From a virus: a stretch of DNA of 44,948 bases. The position numbers and the translations under genes are program-made. The stretch is taken from the IMG/VR virus record IMGVR_UViG_3300033802_000183, one strand, 5' to 3'. Of the stretch, positions 2,777 through 44,948 are shown in pieces (position 1 is the stretch's first letter; the number at the start of each line of letters is the position of its first letter). The notes under the pieces were generated by a model that saw nothing but the letters and a program-made list of their open reading frames with translations, ran no database searches and was not told the DNA's origin.

Positions 2777-3154
2777 TCACTGAAAAACTTCCAGTATTTC
2801 TTTTAATGCGTAGTATTCTGGATTGAATATTTGAAGTATTTTATCTGGCAAAGATAAAATTGTTGCTAGTACGAAAACAAGGTTTAATATACCGAAAATT
2901 GACAATGTTAAGAGAAAAATGAATTCAATATCCTTTTCACAAAGATCATTCCAGTTATTTATCGTGTATCGAGCAAACTTAAATGTTAATAACGACAACG
3001 CTAATACTCCGATAATTAAAACTATTGAAAGTACCCAACCTTCTACATACTTTTGCCTAACCAAAGTTTCAAACACATACTCACTTGCAACGCCTAAACT
3101 TTTAGCGATTTGGTCAATGTATTGCATGATTTTTTCTTGTAACTGTTCGTTCAT
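2777..3154 (-). CDS. Membrane protein, two predicted TM helices
   Basis: Start moved to the ATG at 3154 after GAAGGAGG. Hydrophobic stretches WVLSIVLIIGVLALSLL and IFLLTLSIFGILNLVFVLATIL. Confidence 0.65.
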   Translation of the reverse strand: MNEQLQEKIMQYIDQIAKSLGVASEYVFETLVRQKYVEGWVLSIVLIIGVLALSLLTFKFARYTINNWNDLCEKDIEFIFLLTLSIFGILNLVFVLATILSLPDKILQIFNPEYYALKEILEVFQ

Positions 3155-3167
3155 TTTGTGGCCTCCT

Positions 3168-3638
3168 TCAAATAACAATTATTTCATGCCTGAATAATCC
3201 TTCTTCTGCCGGTTCCAGTGGTGGCGGGAATCGATCTGGCGGCAATCGTAACAGCAATTTACCACTTTTGCTCCTTCCGGCCTTTCGGAATCCTGCCGCA
3301 TGGAAGCAGCCGCCTCTCAAATGCTCTCCAACGTAGGTTATCATCCCGTCCGGCGGCGGTTCGCCCCATAGATGTCGTGTGATTCCGAGTGCTAACACGA
3401 TCAAATGCGAGGAAAGATAATGACCTTCGTTCCGAAACATCGTGCATTCCCAAGCGTTCCAACCATCGTCACGGATTCCGCGCCATGTTACCCATAAAGC
3501 TTGTTCATCTTCTGTTAGTAAAACAAGATTTTGTCCGGGCCGTGTAAATTGCGGTGTACCGGGCTTTTGCCTTGTATAATGTCGGTCAGCTAGTCGTAAT
3601 GCTCGCCAGTCGGACTTTTGAATCGGAACCCATGTCAT
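3168..3638 (-). CDS. Hypothetical protein
   Basis: 156-aa ORF. The nested ORF 3259..3462 is treated as a shadow. Confidence 0.6.
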   Translation of the reverse strand: MTWVPIQKSDWRALRLADRHYTRQKPGTPQFTRPGQNLVLLTEDEQALWVTWRGIRDDGWNAWECTMFRNEGHYLSSHLIVLALGITRHLWGEPPPDGMITYVGEHLRGGCFHAAGFRKAGRSKSGKLLLRLPPDRFPPPLEPAEEGLFRHEIIVI

Positions 3639-6952: not shown

Positions 6953-7343
6953 ACGGATCACCAACCATTCCATCTGCAAAATCAATCCGCAATTTCAATT
7001 TCAGCGCGTGGATTTCTTCCTTCATGGCTTCAAATGCGTTCCTCCAGCGGTGCATCTTTTCATATGCTTCTGCTTCAAGTTGCCTTAGATCAATCACGGC
7101 CAGTTCTGCATGAGCTTCTCGCGGGCTTGGCGCATTGACATATGCTTCGGCGTACTTCCGTTTCCTTTCCGCATATATGCGCTTGTATTCGCCGTCTAAG
7201 AAGCTGGAAAGCCGACCGACAAACACAAGGCATTTTGCAAGAAGTTCAATCTTTTCCATGAGCGCATGAGGTACATCATCGGGAAGCTTATCGGCTTCCC
7301 TCCGCAGTCTCATGATCTCGGCAATGTGATGGTCAATGTTCAT
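6906..7343 (-). CDS. Hypothetical coiled-coil protein
   Basis: 145-aa ORF with a GGCGGTGA SD. Confidence 0.65.
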   Translation of the reverse strand: MNIDHHIAEIMRLRREADKLPDDVPHALMEKIELLAKCLVFVGRLSSFLDGEYKRIYAERKRKYAEAYVNAPSPREAHAELAVIDLRQLEAEAYEKMHRWRNAFEAMKEEIHALKLKLRIDFADGMVGDPYAPVQSGTKAKTQAV

Positions 7344-12728: not shown

Positions 12729-13724
12729 ATGAAAAAGAAAGTTTTAATCTTATCTGTTGCCCTCACTCTATTATTTTCCGGCGTTGTCGTTGCGGCGAGT
12801 ATGTACGGCGAATTTGAAGGTTATCCTATCATTCAGATCAAGAACAATGGAAAAACTATTATTCCTCAAGATGTTCCGGCAATCAGTTTTGAAGGAAGAA
12901 CGATGATTCCGATTTACATGCTGCGCGATCTTGGGTTAAATGTATCGTGGGATCAAGAAACACAAACTGTTAATGTAAGTTCTTCTACTCAAACCAGCAA
13001 TCCGGGGTACGTTTTCTCGAAAAAAGAATTTGATAAATTAATTTCAAAAGCAAGACAATATGACGCTAATTATATTCAGTACAGCTATGCAGGAGGAACA
13101 TCTACTTTTTTGGTTGCTAACTATAAAGATACATTAGATGATGATGTCGATGAAGATTTTAGAAATATAGCAGAAATATCCAAATTAACATTAGAGACGG
13201 ACGCTGGACTTATCATATTTGAAATAAATGTAAATGGCACAATTACAGAAGAAGTGTCTATTTTTAGAGAAGATATAGAAGATTATGTTAATGGTAAAAT
13301 CAATTATTCAGAATACATTCTAAAGTGGTCAATCTATCCTGCCAACAACATAGCACCTATTAATAACACTCCCAATTACAACAATTCATCTACTATGAAT
13401 ACATCATCAGGATACCCGGAACTATATTCAAATGATGGAAAAACGTATTTAGGAAAACTTACAACCAACGAATTTGACGCCGAATCTATTTTTAATGAGT
13501 ATGGTACATATGGAAGTCCTTACTCATCCAAAAGCATTTGGAATGAATACGGAAAATACGGAAGTAAATATTCTAATGAAAGTGCTTTTAATGAATATGC
13601 CACAAAGCCTCCTATTATTGTATTTGATGGAGAAATTATTGGTTATTTAACGACAAATGCTTATATTAATAGTGGCATTTCCCCCTATGAACTATATTCT
13701 TGGTTAGAAGAAAATGGGTATTAA
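12729..13724 (+). CDS. Secreted protein with a copper-amine-oxidase-N-terminal-like (stalk) domain and C-terminal NEYGxYGS repeats
   Basis: Signal peptide MKKKVLILSVALTLLFSGVVVAAS. Stalk motif FEGRTMIPIYMLRDLGLNVSWD. Repeats FNEYGTYGSPYS / WNEYGKYGSKYS / FNEYA. Confidence 0.75.
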   Translation: MKKKVLILSVALTLLFSGVVVAASMYGEFEGYPIIQIKNNGKTIIPQDVPAISFEGRTMIPIYMLRDLGLNVSWDQETQTVNVSSSTQTSNPGYVFSKKEFDKLISKARQYDANYIQYSYAGGTSTFLVANYKDTLDDDVDEDFRNIAEISKLTLETDAGLIIFEINVNGTITEEVSIFREDIEDYVNGKINYSEYILKWSIYPANNIAPINNTPNYNNSSTMNTSSGYPELYSNDGKTYLGKLTTNEFDAESIFNEYGTYGSPYSSKSIWNEYGKYGSKYSNESAFNEYATKPPIIVFDGEIIGYLTTNAYINSGISPYELYSWLEENGY

Positions 13725-13945
13725 TTATTAAAAATCGCCTTCCCATAGAGAAGACGACCATAGTGCAGCTGGCTGGCATAGAAAATCCTTAGCCCCTGTA
13801 GCTTTGCGTCCTCTCCTTTCGGAGAGTTTGCCAAAATATAGTATTTAAAGAGTGTATAAATAATAATAGGTTGATTTTACCAGAAATTCAAGGGCATATT
13901 TGCATGGGATAATTTTCATAATTTTTCGTCACCGGAGGACAAAAA

Positions 13946-15367
13946 ATGCGTGTAGCAATCTATATTCGGGTTAGTACAGATGAACAAGTTCAGCAAGGCT
14001 ACTCCATCGACGCTCAAAAAGAGCGTCTTATTGCGTTTTGCAAGTCCCAGGGATGGAATGACTATAGTCTCTACATAGACGATGGGTACACAGGCACAAA
14101 TTTAAACCGGCCTGCCATGAAAAGATTAATCCGTCATGCCGAAGAAAAAGAAATTGATTTGGTTCTCGTCTACAAACTGGACCGATTAGGACGGAAACAA
14201 AAAGATGTTCTTCATTTGCTTGAAGATGTGTTCGAGAAACACAACGTCGCCTTTAAATCCGCAACAGAGCCTTTTGACACGTCTACTCCACTTGGAAAAG
14301 CCATGATTGGGATATTAGCCGTATTTGCCCAATTGGAACGGGATATGATTGTTGAACGAACCACCACAGGACGGCGCCAAAAAGCCAGTCAAGGCATTTG
14401 GTACGGCGGCAGGATTCCTTTCGGGTATAATTGGAACCAACAAACGCAAACGCTTGAAATCGTGCCGGAAGAAGCTGCAATTGTAAAAGAAATATTCAAA
14501 CGGTATTTGCAAGGGCAGTCCAGGCTTGCGATTGCAGAATGGGCTTCCAGTCGGACAAAAGCGAGATTTTTTGATCATTGCGTAATCCGTGATATGCTCG
14601 CAAGACCCATATATATGGGAAAATTGGTGAATGCCGGAACTCTGGTTGAGGGAAAACACGAACCAATCATCGACGAAGAAACCTGGTATGCTGTTCAAAG
14701 GGAATACAGTCGGCGCAAAGACGGGTTATCACCACTAGGCGATTACTTGCTGACTGGATTATTAGAATGCGGCGTGTGCGGATCGGGGATCGTTCACGTC
14801 AAACGAATTACGCATAAGCGGAACAAAACATATCAGTACGATCTTTACGCTTGCAGAAATCAACATGTTCGGAGAAAGGATAGGAGTGATTATTGCGATT
14901 TAGGATATTTCCGCAGAGAAAAAATTGAGGAATGGGTTGTTGAGGAAATGAAATCCGTGGCACTAAAGCCTAAAAAAATCAATGAATTTATCAAACAAAA
15001 ATCCAGGCATACCGTAGATCAAAACCTTGTTTCCTCCCTCGAAACGAAACTAAAAGCCGTTGTAGAAGGCCTGGAAAATCTGTACGAAGCGATCCAAACA
15101 GGAGAGATCAAAGCATCATACGTCAGCGGTCGTATCAAAAAGTTGGAAGAAGAAAGGGAAGCTATTGAGCGGCAGTTGGAGGATTTGAAAGATGAAATGC
15201 CGAAAATTATAGAACCCAGGAATATGCTTTACCTCGTTCGCGAAGTGGCAGACGCATGGGACTTACTTACCGAAGACGAGCAAAAGATGATGATTCGCAA
15301 AGTTATTAAGAAAGTGATATTGAAAAAAGACGAAGATCCGGAAATTGTTTGGAACGTTGTTGAATAA
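13946..15367 (+). CDS. Large serine recombinase (integrase)
   Basis: MRVAIYIRVSTDEQ catalytic-Ser N-terminus, resolvase domain, recombinase domain, Cys-rich zinc ribbon (CGVCG...C) and a C-terminal coiled coil. Confidence 0.95.
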   Translation: MRVAIYIRVSTDEQVQQGYSIDAQKERLIAFCKSQGWNDYSLYIDDGYTGTNLNRPAMKRLIRHAEEKEIDLVLVYKLDRLGRKQKDVLHLLEDVFEKHNVAFKSATEPFDTSTPLGKAMIGILAVFAQLERDMIVERTTTGRRQKASQGIWYGGRIPFGYNWNQQTQTLEIVPEEAAIVKEIFKRYLQGQSRLAIAEWASSRTKARFFDHCVIRDMLARPIYMGKLVNAGTLVEGKHEPIIDEETWYAVQREYSRRKDGLSPLGDYLLTGLLECGVCGSGIVHVKRITHKRNKTYQYDLYACRNQHVRRKDRSDYCDLGYFRREKIEEWVVEEMKSVALKPKKINEFIKQKSRHTVDQNLVSSLETKLKAVVEGLENLYEAIQTGEIKASYVSGRIKKLEEEREAIERQLEDLKDEMPKIIEPRNMLYLVREVADAWDLLTEDEQKMMIRKVIKKVILKKDEDPEIVWNVVE

Positions 15368-15419: not shown

Positions 15420-15758
15420 TTATTTGAGTTCTACCTTTATTATGTCTTTAAAATTCACCCATTCCCATTCCTCACCAAATTCAACTTTAATCCGTTTCAA
15501 CTGCTGATCCACTTTCGTCACAACGCCGGTTAGCGTCCGATCCTCAAATTCCCCGTACAGGATGAAGCTGACCGGCTGTTTTGTGCCGTAGGAATAACCG
15601 ATCCCCCGCGCGATGTCTTCCTGTTCTTGCTCATCGAGTTCAGGCCGTGGCTTTTTTCGTGTTTCTTCCTGATACTTCAATAGCTCTGCTTTATGTTCAG
15701 GCAACATGATTCGGCTTGACTCCCAAAACATATTTGAACCCGGTGTGTTTTTGTGCAT
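15420..15758 (-). CDS. YolD-like protein
   Basis: MFWESSRIMLPEH ... RPELDEQEQEDI ... GVVTKVD matches the YolD-like pattern. The ATG at 15758 lies 7 nt after GGAGGGG. Confidence 0.75.
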   Translation of the reverse strand: MHKNTPGSNMFWESSRIMLPEHKAELLKYQEETRKKPRPELDEQEQEDIARGIGYSYGTKQPVSFILYGEFEDRTLTGVVTKVDQQLKRIKVEFGEEWEWVNFKDIIKVELK

Positions 15759-15772
15759 TCGCACCCCTCCTA

Positions 15773-15786
15773 AGAACGTCTGTTCT
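15773..15786. promoter_or_regulatory. LexA (Cheo-type) SOS box AGAACGTCTGTTCT
   Basis: Perfect GAAC-N4-GTTC dyad just downstream of the yolD-like -10 element. Confidence 0.7.
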
Positions 15787-15788
15787 TA

Positions 15789-15818
15789 ATTATATGCGAA
15801 TATTTGTTCCTAAAACAA
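15789..15818 (-). promoter_or_regulatory. Promoter of the yolD-like gene (TTGTTT-18-TATAAT)
   Basis: On the minus strand, -35 is at 15818-15813 and -10 at 15794-15789. Both SOS boxes overlap it. Confidence 0.65.
15797..15810. promoter_or_regulatory. Second SOS-box-like site CGAATATTTGTTCC
   Basis: GAAT-N4-GTTC inside the promoter spacer, one mismatch from the half-site consensus. Confidence 0.6.
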
Positions 15819-15820
15819 TA

Positions 15821-15849
15821 TTTACTCGCTCAGAAGTTTGTGTTAAAAT
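15821..15849 (+). promoter_or_regulatory. Plus-strand promoter TTTACT-17-TAAAAT with extended -10 (TGt)
   Basis: -35 at 15821-15826, TG at 15841-15842, -10 at 15844-15849. It points into the ORF-free GC-rich region. Confidence 0.55.
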
Positions 15850-15855
15850 TAATAT

Positions 15856-16367
15856 GTAAAATTATTATCCGTCACGCCGTCACGCTGCGCTGTCGCGGCG
15901 GCAACGTTAGTTGTTAAGCGGTCAAGCCCTGCGCATTCGCGGAGCAAGTGACGGACTAGTACCCCAGGTTGCCGTGCGGATTGGGGTATTCCCGATCGGC
16001 GGCGTAAAATGGCCTGATGCATGACGGGTCCGGTGTGTGCCGGATAACCCGCCGTGCTTAATGGAATGCGGTGGCGGAAAAGGTGGACGCTAAGCGTAAG
16101 ATAGCAGCCTTGTGTGACCGGGTGTAGCGGTTGGTAGTCCCTGCGACTCTTCGTCGCAAACTACGAAGTGGGGAGCCTGGCAGGTACGAAATGCTATCAT
16201 GCCAGGTGCAAATCCTGGCCCGCATTCCGTACATAATAGACCCATCCCGCGCCTCTTCACAATGCGTGACAGGGCTGGCCGAAAAAAGCCCGGCGGTATC
16301 ATCCGTCGGGTTTCTGCATAAAATATATTGGGTTGTTAGTCGGTGCCCTTTGGGCCCGGCTTTTTTC
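15856..16367 (+). ncRNA. Candidate large structured non-coding RNA, family not recognised
   Basis: There is no credible ORF. G+C is 58% against 24% in the preceding 80 bp. It is bounded by a promoter and two hairpin+T-tract terminators and is dense in local helices. The strand is inferred from the promoter and terminators only. Confidence 0.45.
16289..16310. terminator. Bidirectional hairpin CCCGGCGG-tatcat-CCGTCGGG flanked by A6 and T3
   Basis: 8-bp stem with one G-U on the plus RNA. On the minus strand it is followed by CTTTTTTCGG, so it likely terminates the XRE cassette. Confidence 0.6.
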
Positions 16368-16614
16368 TTGCTCGAATAATCTTTACGCCAGGCGTTTGCA
16401 ATTCGTCGATTCTGCGGCACACTTCATACTGCCAATCGGTATCGTTTGTCATGCTGGCGAGCAAAGACAGGTTCTCCAACTTTACCCGTTTCCACACATC
16501 GTTTGCAAGCCACTCTAAACATTGACCGATTTCGTACATTTCTTTTTCGGTCAAGTCTCTTTGTTTGCTGATCGTCCAAAGCTCGGCAAGCCGTTGCTCA
16601 ACTGCGTTCACCAT
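16336..16614 (-). CDS. 92-aa hypothetical protein
   Basis: Track ORF 16336..16815 trimmed to the ATG at 16614 (MVNAVEQRLAELW...), which overlaps the upstream micro-ORF stop. Confidence 0.6.
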   Translation of the reverse strand: MVNAVEQRLAELWTISKQRDLTEKEMYEIGQCLEWLANDVWKRVKLENLSLLASMTNDTDWQYEVCRRIDELQTPGVKIIRARKKPGPKGTD

Positions 16615-16724
16615 AGCGATACCCAACCTTTCACGGCAAATGCGCCCAGGACAAGCACGTAGACGGCAGGAAGATGTTCTTTCAGCCGCCGACGAGGCTT
16701 GCATAAGTCGATCACAACATACAT
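16608..16724 (-). CDS. 38-aa membrane micro-protein (hand-called)
   Basis: MYVVIDLCKPRRRLKEHLPAVYVLVLGAFAVKGWVSLW. Strong GAAAGGAG SD. ATGGTGA overlap with the next gene. Confidence 0.5.
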   Translation of the reverse strand: MYVVIDLCKPRRRLKEHLPAVYVLVLGAFAVKGWVSLW

Positions 16725-44722: not shown

Positions 44723-44926
44723 TCACATCTCACGAATTTCACGTTCCAATTCAGCGCCGCACTTGTTGCAAAAGATGTTGTATTGGTCGCGGACAAACGG
44801 TTTTTCGCACACAGCACAAACCGCACCGCCCATTCCTCGCCAACATTCGGTGCAAATTGGGAACGTTTTTCCGTTCTCCTCCACCATGCCTACAGCGTCG
44901 TTAATGTTGCACAGATCGCACAACAT
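44723..44926 (-). CDS. Small double Zn-ribbon protein
   Basis: CDLC...CTEC...CAVC...CNKC. Its 5' part is duplicated at 1-105 by the assembly overlap. Confidence 0.6.
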   Translation of the reverse strand: MLCDLCNINDAVGMVEENGKTFPICTECWRGMGGAVCAVCEKPFVRDQYNIFCNKCGAELEREIREM

Positions 44927-44948
44927 CAGGCATCACATCCCACATTTC
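44822..44948. repeat. Terminal direct repeat, copy 2
   Basis: Identical to 1-127. It duplicates the 5' part of CDS 44723..44926. Confidence 0.95.

Follow-up and report, generated by a model that had tools for sequence, protein, structure and literature searches.

The window analysed here is the whole 44,948-nt stretch of the IMG/VR virus record IMGVR_UViG_3300033802_000183, in which the first 127 bases (1-127) proved by direct comparison to be the same as bases 44822-44948. Annotation of its proteins places phage genes on either side of the locus under study, including those encoding a dUTPase, a DnaC-like ATPase, an ERF recombinase and a cI-like HTH protein, as well as a terminase, a portal, a capsid and a large tail protein. 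Because of the 127-base terminal repeat and the phage genes on both sides, the window represents the entire, circularly closed genome of a temperate phage and not a prophage end in a chromosome, and the "prophage end" at which the first-pass annotation, made from the sequence alone, had placed the locus was a mistake. One flank of the locus carries a large serine recombinase gene (13946-15367, plus strand) and a YolD-like gene (15420-15764, minus strand), and the other flank a DUF7667 gene identified with Pfam (16336-16614, minus strand). Genes for an HTH protein, a holin and an amidase are found on the same side as DUF7667. Gene annotation thus bears out the cargo position that had been proposed for the locus, between the integrase and yolD genes and the lysis genes. 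The host is probably a Paenibacillus-like member of the Bacillota, since the nearest named relative of the DUF7667 protein is a Paenibacillus glucanolyticus protein with 59% identity.

Between these genes lies a 514-nt cassette (15822-16335, plus strand) that the window carries and a close relative, L021, lacks. The flanks of L021 match positions 15436-15821 (93.5%) and 16336-16724 (90.8%) of the window, and 72 unrelated nt stand in place of 15822-16335, with no match between the flanks. As L021 shows flanks of 91-93% identity without this segment, the cassette is self-contained and comes and goes as one 514-nt unit. This empty site came from the neighbour-guided comparison of YolD and DUF7667 relatives; in the relatives recovered by this approach from viral contigs and metagenomes the RNA was absent, and in distant ones the slot between DUF7667 and yolD is occupied by protein genes. 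Seven further metagenome contigs carry the locus at 100% identity and therefore add no variation. Divergent homologs were recovered in L024, L025 and L026 using the translated stop-free minus-strand frames as multiplexed degenerate DNA seeds, and pattern scans added L027, L028, L054, L143, L164, L169, L180 and L182. A 20-nt word of the T arm described below, scanned over the genome collection, gave chance matches within coding regions only, and L003, retrieved in the viral scan, was discarded as a chance match.

The abrupt change in base composition described by the first-pass annotation was reproduced exactly, with 266 G+C in the 460 nt of 15861-16320 and 19 in the 80 nt of 15781-15860. The G+C content of the whole window is 44.8%, and a sliding profile rises from approximately 34-38% to 53-61% at about 15860. 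The promoter scan located the candidate plus-strand promoter TTTACT-17-TAAAAT at 15821-15849, with its TG extension at 15841-15842, just as it had been reported. This candidate promoter sits at the left edge of the cassette, just ahead of the jump in G+C. Its -35 box begins at the left junction, so that the cassette would bring its own candidate promoter, from which transcription would be expected to start near 15856. Promoter-like sites in the region number three, against 2.6 in shuffled sequences, an absence of enrichment by which a sequence match alone proves little. Every helix listed in the earlier description is an exact reverse complement at its position, including TCCGTCAC/GTGACGGA, ACCCCA/TGGGGT, GTAGT/ACTAC, GCGAC/GTCGC, CCTGGCA/TGCCAGG and CCAGG/CCTGG, and the tandem CCGTCACG is found at 15869-15884. 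Furthermore, the whole 512 nt of the region (15856-16367) folds more stably than shuffled sequences, with z = -4.72 for the plus strand and z = -3.14 for the minus strand.

Two plus-strand terminators had been proposed at the right end. Both hairpins are present in the minimum-free-energy fold; however, the terminator scan listed neither of them, and the second lies outside the cassette. Hairpin 1 with its 3' tract spans 16286-16318 (stem 16289-16296/16303-16310) and aligns with the hairpin and U run that close the homologous arrays in L024, L026 and L027. Those arrays terminate in a clear hairpin and U run, while here the U tract is poor (UUUCUGC only), and hairpin 1 is considered a candidate for a weak terminator of the cassette itself. 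Hairpin 2 has a bulged stem followed by T6 (16339-16372; hairpin 16339-16366) and overlaps DUF7667, on the minus strand, at its final codons; L021, the relative without the cassette, has this hairpin unchanged. By this comparison it appears to be a terminator of the phage backbone, external to the cassette, and its bulged stem is probably the reason why the ungapped scan did not list it. The right end of the cassette falls just short of this hairpin, and the 72-nt filler of L021 also has an extended -10 box directed at it.

The region is non-coding. Its open reading frames show no Pfam domain, the longest of them (120 aa) has no homolog among 5.8 billion proteins, and the stop-free frames gave nothing against Pfam at E <= 1 except one stray match of 0.014. 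Homologs differ through module swaps and through indels that are not multiples of three, and conservation tracks helices rather than codons. A protein-coding gene, or a frameshifted host-derived gene fragment, could be imagined from the minus-strand stop-free frames of 103 and 91 codons, but the lack of a Pfam domain, of a homolog for the 120-aa frame and of any blastn match of the region in the phage and plasmid collections, together with the conservation of helices instead of codons, contradicts this reading, whose probability we regard as practically nil. The earlier statement that no credible reading frame exists here is reinforced by the existence of L021 without the segment, and the data support its description of the locus as encoding a structured, non-coding RNA on the plus strand behind a candidate promoter of its own.

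Comparison with known RNA families was negative. All 4227 families of Rfam 15 were scanned and nothing was found in the region at gathering scores; between 15700 and 16500, only two chance-level matches (E = 0.62 and 9.3) appeared at E <= 10, both on the terminator region. The scan included ROOL, GOLLD, OLE, raiA, HEARO and the group I and II introns, none of which matched, and the RNase P, 6S and SRP models did not match the region either. The ROOL model (RF03087) gave no match at the gathering score or at E <= 10, and 387 bits on a true ROOL used as positive control (L034, 4042-4646). DUF3800-VII (RF02967) has no match in the window. ARAGORN with default settings called no tRNA or tmRNA in the region, and the Rfam tRNA model had no match there at E <= 10. 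Relaxed ARAGORN settings returned tRNA calls with "introns" that were rejected as implausible. The first-pass annotation was right in that no named RNA family matches; nevertheless, it missed a resemblance to tRNA, as the core of the region, 16065-16226, is tRNA-like.

This core, module C, is an anticodon-less tRNA-like element on the plus strand. It shows a 7-bp acceptor stem (16065-16071/16220-16226, extended here to 16062-16231), a D arm of the tRNA-Leu type (16074-16090), a hypervariable central arm (approximately 16101-16199) and a 6-bp T stem (16201-16206/16214-16219) with the loop UGCAAAU (16207-16213). The D arm resembles that of bacterial tRNA-Leu. The acceptor helix is lengthened to 9-12 bp in the window, which does not make an ideal RNase P substrate. 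Two mutually exclusive pairings had been proposed here, CCTGGCA/TGCCAGG and CCAGG/CCTGG; both are exact, but the former is not conserved and the latter is the covarying T stem. A covariance model (R1) was built from 60 phage elements, leaving out the window and its near relatives. R1 matched 16065-16226 with 75.4 bits and E = 5.1e-16 over all its positions (1-119/119), on the plus strand only, and the second-best match in the window had E = 0.35. It also recovered the relatives and a copy in Bacillus phage phi3T with 79-88 bits, and none of about 45 genuine tRNAs of the L034 and L044 arrays matched at E <= 0.1. The family signature consists of NAUGCGG-UG-GCGGAAWAGGURGACGC in the 5' part, followed by the 6-bp T stem, the UGCAAAU loop and CCGCAUN, and the window carries it as AAUGCGGUGGCGGAAAAGGUGGACGC ... 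GCCAGG-UGCAAAU-CCUGGC-CCGCAUU. Module C is thus a member of a phage tRNA-like family.

The 25-nt acceptor and D-arm motif ATGCGGTGGCGGAAWAGGTRGACGC matches at least 120 IMG/VR stretches, and the loci fetched among the matches listed contain 108 distinct elements of 79-229 nt. Their common plan starts with a 7-bp acceptor stem and UG; then come a D stem of 3 bp closing a loop of 11 nt (GAAUAGGUAGA), in many cases a short hairpin, a variable arm that differs greatly in length and sequence, the 6-bp T stem with its UGCAAAU loop and the 3' acceptor strand, with a hypervariable centre of 25-170 nt. Across 60 sequences, 97.1% of the cells in the proposed helices are paired, against 34-54% when the partner columns are slid; both-sided changes occur in 11 of 16 pairs, and none of 500 shuffles reached the observed values. 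Tandem neighbour copies, which were not picked by the search motif, have different but self-complementary acceptors, such as AACACGG/CCGTGTG and TGGATGG/CCATCCG, and also show a compensated D-stem pair. Covariation at the level of the family thus bears out the structural reading of module C, and these changes argue strongly for its helices in the acceptor, D and T arms. All T loops read UGCAAAU or a near variant; position 73 varies, and the elements do not encode CCA. An anticodon-arm-like feature (5-bp stem and 7-nt loop with U33 and R37) was found in four of the 108 elements, under chance-like criteria, and is absent from the element in the window.

A functionless remnant, made of a degenerate tRNA-Leu gene and captured GC-rich DNA in decay, would account for a tRNA-Leu-like D arm without an anticodon arm or CCA. 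It would not be expected to keep the 25-nt motif invariant in more than 100 otherwise unrelated phage contigs, phi3T included, nor compensatory changes in the acceptor and T stems, and its T loop would be a decayed UUCRAAU rather than a constant UGCAAAU or near variant. The data contradict this reading, which we consider very improbable.

The elements are mostly solitary, 13 of 107 being located within 500 nt of a tRNA, and the association with tRNA arrays is weak. In many members of the family an open reading frame begins 20-60 nt downstream, the downstream genes being mutually unrelated with no recurring family among them; no defence genes were found as neighbours. The phi3T copy (KY030782.1, about 50190-50330) is unannotated and lies downstream of a yonN-like gene. 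No ARAGORN call overlaps any family member, and neither Rfam 15 nor the searchable literature provided a named description. An anonymous IMG/VR catalogue of 8495 candidates (PMC10690425) may include the family. These elements are a widespread family of phage tRNA look-alikes without an anticodon, not named in Rfam 15 or in the searchable literature.

Three further modules accompany the tRNA-like element on the plus strand. Module A (15868-15955) is multi-branched and closed by the helix TCCGTCAC/GTGACGGA; its homologs are found in L028, L054, L164 and L169, the remaining matches of the module A pattern scan being mostly chance occurrences in GC-rich coding DNA. In L028 the closing helix becomes CCCGCCAC/GTGGCGGG, with two compensated pairs, and the middle hairpin is replaced by a different hairpin among the homologs. 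Between modules A and B, the minimum-free-energy fold places the ACCCCA/TGGGGT hairpin and its neighbours (15961-16012), for which nhmmer found no homolog in 1.15 Mb of related loci. Module B (16019-16057) is a hairpin with the consensus GCAUGACGGGyCCGGyGwGUGCCGG..ACCCGC, 87-93% identical in L024, L025, L026 and L028; its consensus fold has 13 pairs, and two one-sided changes preserve pairing. Module D (16241-16279) consists of the helix CCAUCCC/GGGCUGG around a conserved GCGCCUCU...GCGU, with homologs in L024, L026, L027, L143, L180 and L182 and both-sided changes at two pairs. Each of these three modules is represented by three to six related sequences, so the covariation support is thin, and the pair-preserving changes are suggestive of conserved helices in A, B and D.

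The arrangement of these modules differs between phages. In L164 and L169 module A stands alone with a terminator directly after it, in L182 module D is ahead of the tRNA-like unit instead of after it as in the window, and L024 and L026 have approximately 100 extra nt between modules B and C. In L024-L028 the modules sit ahead of packaging genes, and the arrays of L026 and L028 hold further units, among them a DUF3800-VII match (60.4 and 62.6 bits), which precedes modules A, B and C. A terminal helix of its own closes each module, and no conserved long-range pairing between modules was found in the fold or in the module alignments. The locus is thus made up of a series of modules, each conserved on its own and shuffled between phages. 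A single large RNA of the ROOL or GOLLD type had been the comparison class suggested by the first-pass annotation. One integrated RNA of this kind, perhaps multimerising and acting as a single particle, would fit a single promoter and terminator and the good folding of the 512 nt (z = -4.72), and ROOL and a tRNA-like element do share a phage region in L034. Against it, Rfam gives no match at E <= 10, the modules recur alone, reordered and with other partners, and terminal helices close each module with no conserved pairing between them; the ROOL/GOLLD assignment does not hold, and we consider an integrated RNA unlikely.

The DUF3800-VII units in the related arrays also bear on a role as RNA partner or guide of a protein, in which the hypervariable arm, displayed on the conserved tRNA-like scaffold, would confer specificity, much as has been supposed for DUF3800-associated motifs and an RNase H-like DUF3800 protein. 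A layout in which a hypervariable centre of 25-170 nt is set in an invariant scaffold would suit such a guide, and DUF3800 motifs have been tied to an RNase H2-like family (PMC5737381, PMC7736814). However, no DUF3800 gene occurs among the tested proteins of the window, L026 and L028, no gene family recurs downstream of the elements, and complementarity between the RNA and other parts of the phage genome stays at chance level, with 11-13-mers only, all of which makes a guide rather unlikely.

A role in cis would assign to the segment the function of a convergent-transcription buffer, an antisense RNA to the 3' end of the DUF7667 mRNA, or an element for the processing or stability of adjacent transcripts. 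If transcription ran through to hairpin 2, some 30 nt at the end of the RNA would be antisense to the region of the DUF7667 stop codon, the extended -10 box in the filler of L021 points toward the same hairpin, and the position of many family members 20-60 nt upstream of an open reading frame could be read in the same sense. Nevertheless, none of these tasks needs ~450 nt of conserved, covarying structure, and the same modules are found in quite different contexts, such as ahead of the packaging genes of L024-L028, with unrelated genes downstream. A cis role is accordingly judged quite unlikely.

The reading that we prefer, to which we assign an even chance, is that the cassette is mobile cargo encoding a precursor of trans-acting stable RNAs, which include a tRNA mimic or decoy. 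The plus strand would be transcribed from the candidate promoter of the cassette as a single precursor of approximately 460 nt if it ends at hairpin 1, or approximately 515 nt if it ends at hairpin 2, and this RNA would form a chain of independent folded units with the tRNA mimic in the centre. The mimic would keep the class II stack of acceptor and T arm and the elbow between D loop and T loop, with the hypervariable arm replacing the anticodon and variable arms. Host RNase P and RNase Z may cut at the tRNA-like unit and release stable small RNAs. More speculatively, the tRNA-like unit could occupy in trans a host or defence factor that reads the body of tRNAs, for example a tRNA-cleaving immune nuclease or a tRNA-binding enzyme. 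A conserved partner is argued for because the nucleotides which would build the elbow are near-invariant across phages of very different hosts, whereas an element with neither an anticodon loop nor a fixed 3' end would be unlikely to serve in decoding or to have one specific aminoacyl-tRNA synthetase as its only target. Nor is it likely to be a decoy for anticodon nucleases, having no anticodon loop to offer. Phage tRNA-related genes acting on host factors have precedents: Septu cuts tRNA-Tyr, a class II tRNA, in its variable loop, and phage T6 overcomes this by raising the expression of its own tRNA (PMC13096335), and the reduced tmRNA of phage DS6A described below is a second case. Binding to a phage protein would account equally well for the extreme sequence conservation of the D arm and T loop.

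The tRNA-like family is abundant in phages (at least 120 IMG/VR stretches for a single narrow motif), has an almost invariant elbow and is absent from Rfam 15; tRNA finders are blind to it, and even the copy in the model phage phi3T has gone unannotated. Furthermore, the orphan DUF3800-VII motif gains a context as one unit of phage RNA arrays. A broader and more tentative proposal, which we hold as possible and no more, is that the cassette represents an undescribed, widespread class of phage RNA, in which class II tRNA bodies that have lost the anticodon and bear a hypervariable arm would often be joined to other small folded RNAs, DUF3800-type motifs included, in shuffling "structured-RNA operons"; the products would be programmable mimics, decoys or scaffolds in the conflict of phages with tRNA-directed immunity or tRNA-handling enzymes of the host. 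Should the elements engage a host or immune factor by way of the tRNA body, they would constitute a new RNA-based phage counter-measure or a tool for host takeover, and the phi3T copy in Bacillus subtilis makes the binding idea genetically tractable.

Mimicry of tRNA is known in tmRNA, in bacterial Y RNAs and in the tRNA-like structures of plant viruses. Compared with a class II tRNA of the bacterial tRNA-Leu type, the element shares the 7-bp acceptor, the 3-bp D stem, the large D loop with GG, the T arm stacked on the acceptor, the long arm before the T arm and the cloverleaf order. It differs in the absence of an anticodon arm with 5-bp stem and 7-nt loop, in a T stem of 6 bp, in the T loop UGCAAAU, which puts G where U55 is expected, and in the lack of a conserved position 73 or CCA; ARAGORN and the Rfam tRNA model are blind to it. 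Species 1 and 2 of phage T4 (RNA C and D), from its tRNA gene cluster, are small stable RNAs co-transcribed and processed with tRNAs. The cassette may be comparable to them, but most tRNA-like elements, unlike the T4 species, do not stand beside tRNA genes (13 of 107 within 500 nt).

As in ROOL and GOLLD, the locus is phage-borne, long, GC-rich and free of open reading frames; it differs in showing no similarity to their models and in being modular and shuffling instead of having one conserved fold. In L034 a few kb separate a ROOL from one of the tRNA-like elements. DUF3800 motifs have been described and left unexplained; the single protein family with which they are associated (PMC5737381) resembles RNase H2 (PMC7736814). 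DUF3800-VII (RF02967; Weinberg et al. 2017) is, like the modules described here, a small, complex structured RNA followed by a terminator, and it forms one unit of the homologous arrays in L026 and L028; in contrast, the window itself has no match to it and no DUF3800 gene is nearby, none having been detected among the proteins tested from the window, L026 and L028.

Mycobacteriophage DS6A has a tmRNA of which just the tRNA-like domain (TLD) is left, and a similar molecule inhibits tmRNA; the TLD-only tmRNA of DS6A is proposed to titrate SmpB (PMC4131195). The element in the window is comparable to it as an anticodon-less tRNA mimic in which a long insertion separates the D region from the T arm. 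Unlike in tmRNA, its pair 3:70 is U-A in 55 of 60 sequences instead of the G-U for alanine charging, ARAGORN and Rfam call no tmRNA, a tag reading frame with a proper end is absent, and its D arm is a true class II D arm.

The two ends of the window carry a 127-bp direct repeat with 100% identity (1-127 and 44822-44948), and a terminal repeat of this kind is the signature of a circular assembly. Because its ends repeat these 127 bp, the window represents a phage genome in its entirety, roughly 44.8 kb long, and not a prophage in a chromosome.

At the left edge of the non-coding RNA cassette (15822-16335, plus strand), the promoter-like site of the neighboring yolD-like gene, on the minus strand, has its -35 box inside the cassette (15846-15841), where it overlaps the -10 box of the RNA promoter-like site, so that both sites show a back-to-back arrangement. 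The interval that separates the yolD start from the promoter-like site of this gene holds a LexA (Cheo-box) type palindrome, GAACGTCTGTTC (15776-15787). The close relative L021, which does not have the cassette, shows in its place a 72-nt filler (392-463) with its own extended -10 box, TGATATAAT, directed toward the hairpin and T6 tract common to L021 and the window, so the filler may produce a short RNA antisense to the stop region of the DUF7667 gene, which follows the cassette. A relative of this gene (67% identical) is present in contig L022, where the next gene encodes an aminoacyl-tRNA synthetase of class Ib (Trp/Tyr type). The 465 nt of non-coding DNA ahead of the synthetase gene (L022 549-1015) may be a T-box leader or a prophage/host junction.

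In the lysogeny region of the window, a c-di-GMP-I riboswitch was found on the minus strand at 13761-13842 (13735-13890 with its flanks; 69.7 bits). A promoter-like TTGAAT-17-TATTAT precedes it, and a hairpin followed by U5 lies downstream. No minus-strand ORF follows the riboswitch; a read-through transcript would run antisense first to the gene at 12729-13724 (plus strand) and then to the cI-like HTH gene. The arrangement may represent antisense control gated by c-di-GMP.

Related contigs L028 (900-2000, minus strand) and L025 (1-600) show long arrays of structured units, among which are the DUF3800-VII motif and a tRNA-like unit that weakly matches the tRNA-Sec model. Each unit is enclosed by a helix (GGUGAUUC..CCGCCAC / GUGGCGGG..AUCAC) and followed by an ACAUA-type linker; this recurring linker could be a processing site. 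Phage contig L027 has a twister-sister ribozyme match (2892-2961, minus strand, 44.7 bits) about 2.7 kb away from its RNA array.

The tRNA-like family, to which cassette module C belongs, has a member in Bacillus phage phi3T (L149 2501-2635, equivalent to KY030782.1 ~50190-50330; minus strand, 79.8 bits). This element is unannotated, lies directly downstream of a yonN-like HU gene and partly overlaps the small annotated ORF phi3T_57. Within the variable region of the L004 member (3314-3436) there is an additional T arm, of canonical form (GTGG-TTCAATT-CCAC), which has a 9-bp helix of its own and gives a nested mini tRNA-like shape; a GGTTCGAWTCC arm is likewise embedded in several members (L034, L035, L041, L042, L050 and L057). 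In L034 (3800-9300), a tRNA array with more than 20 genes comes after a ROOL RNA (387 bits), and a member of the tRNA-like family interrupts this array at 7203-7321.
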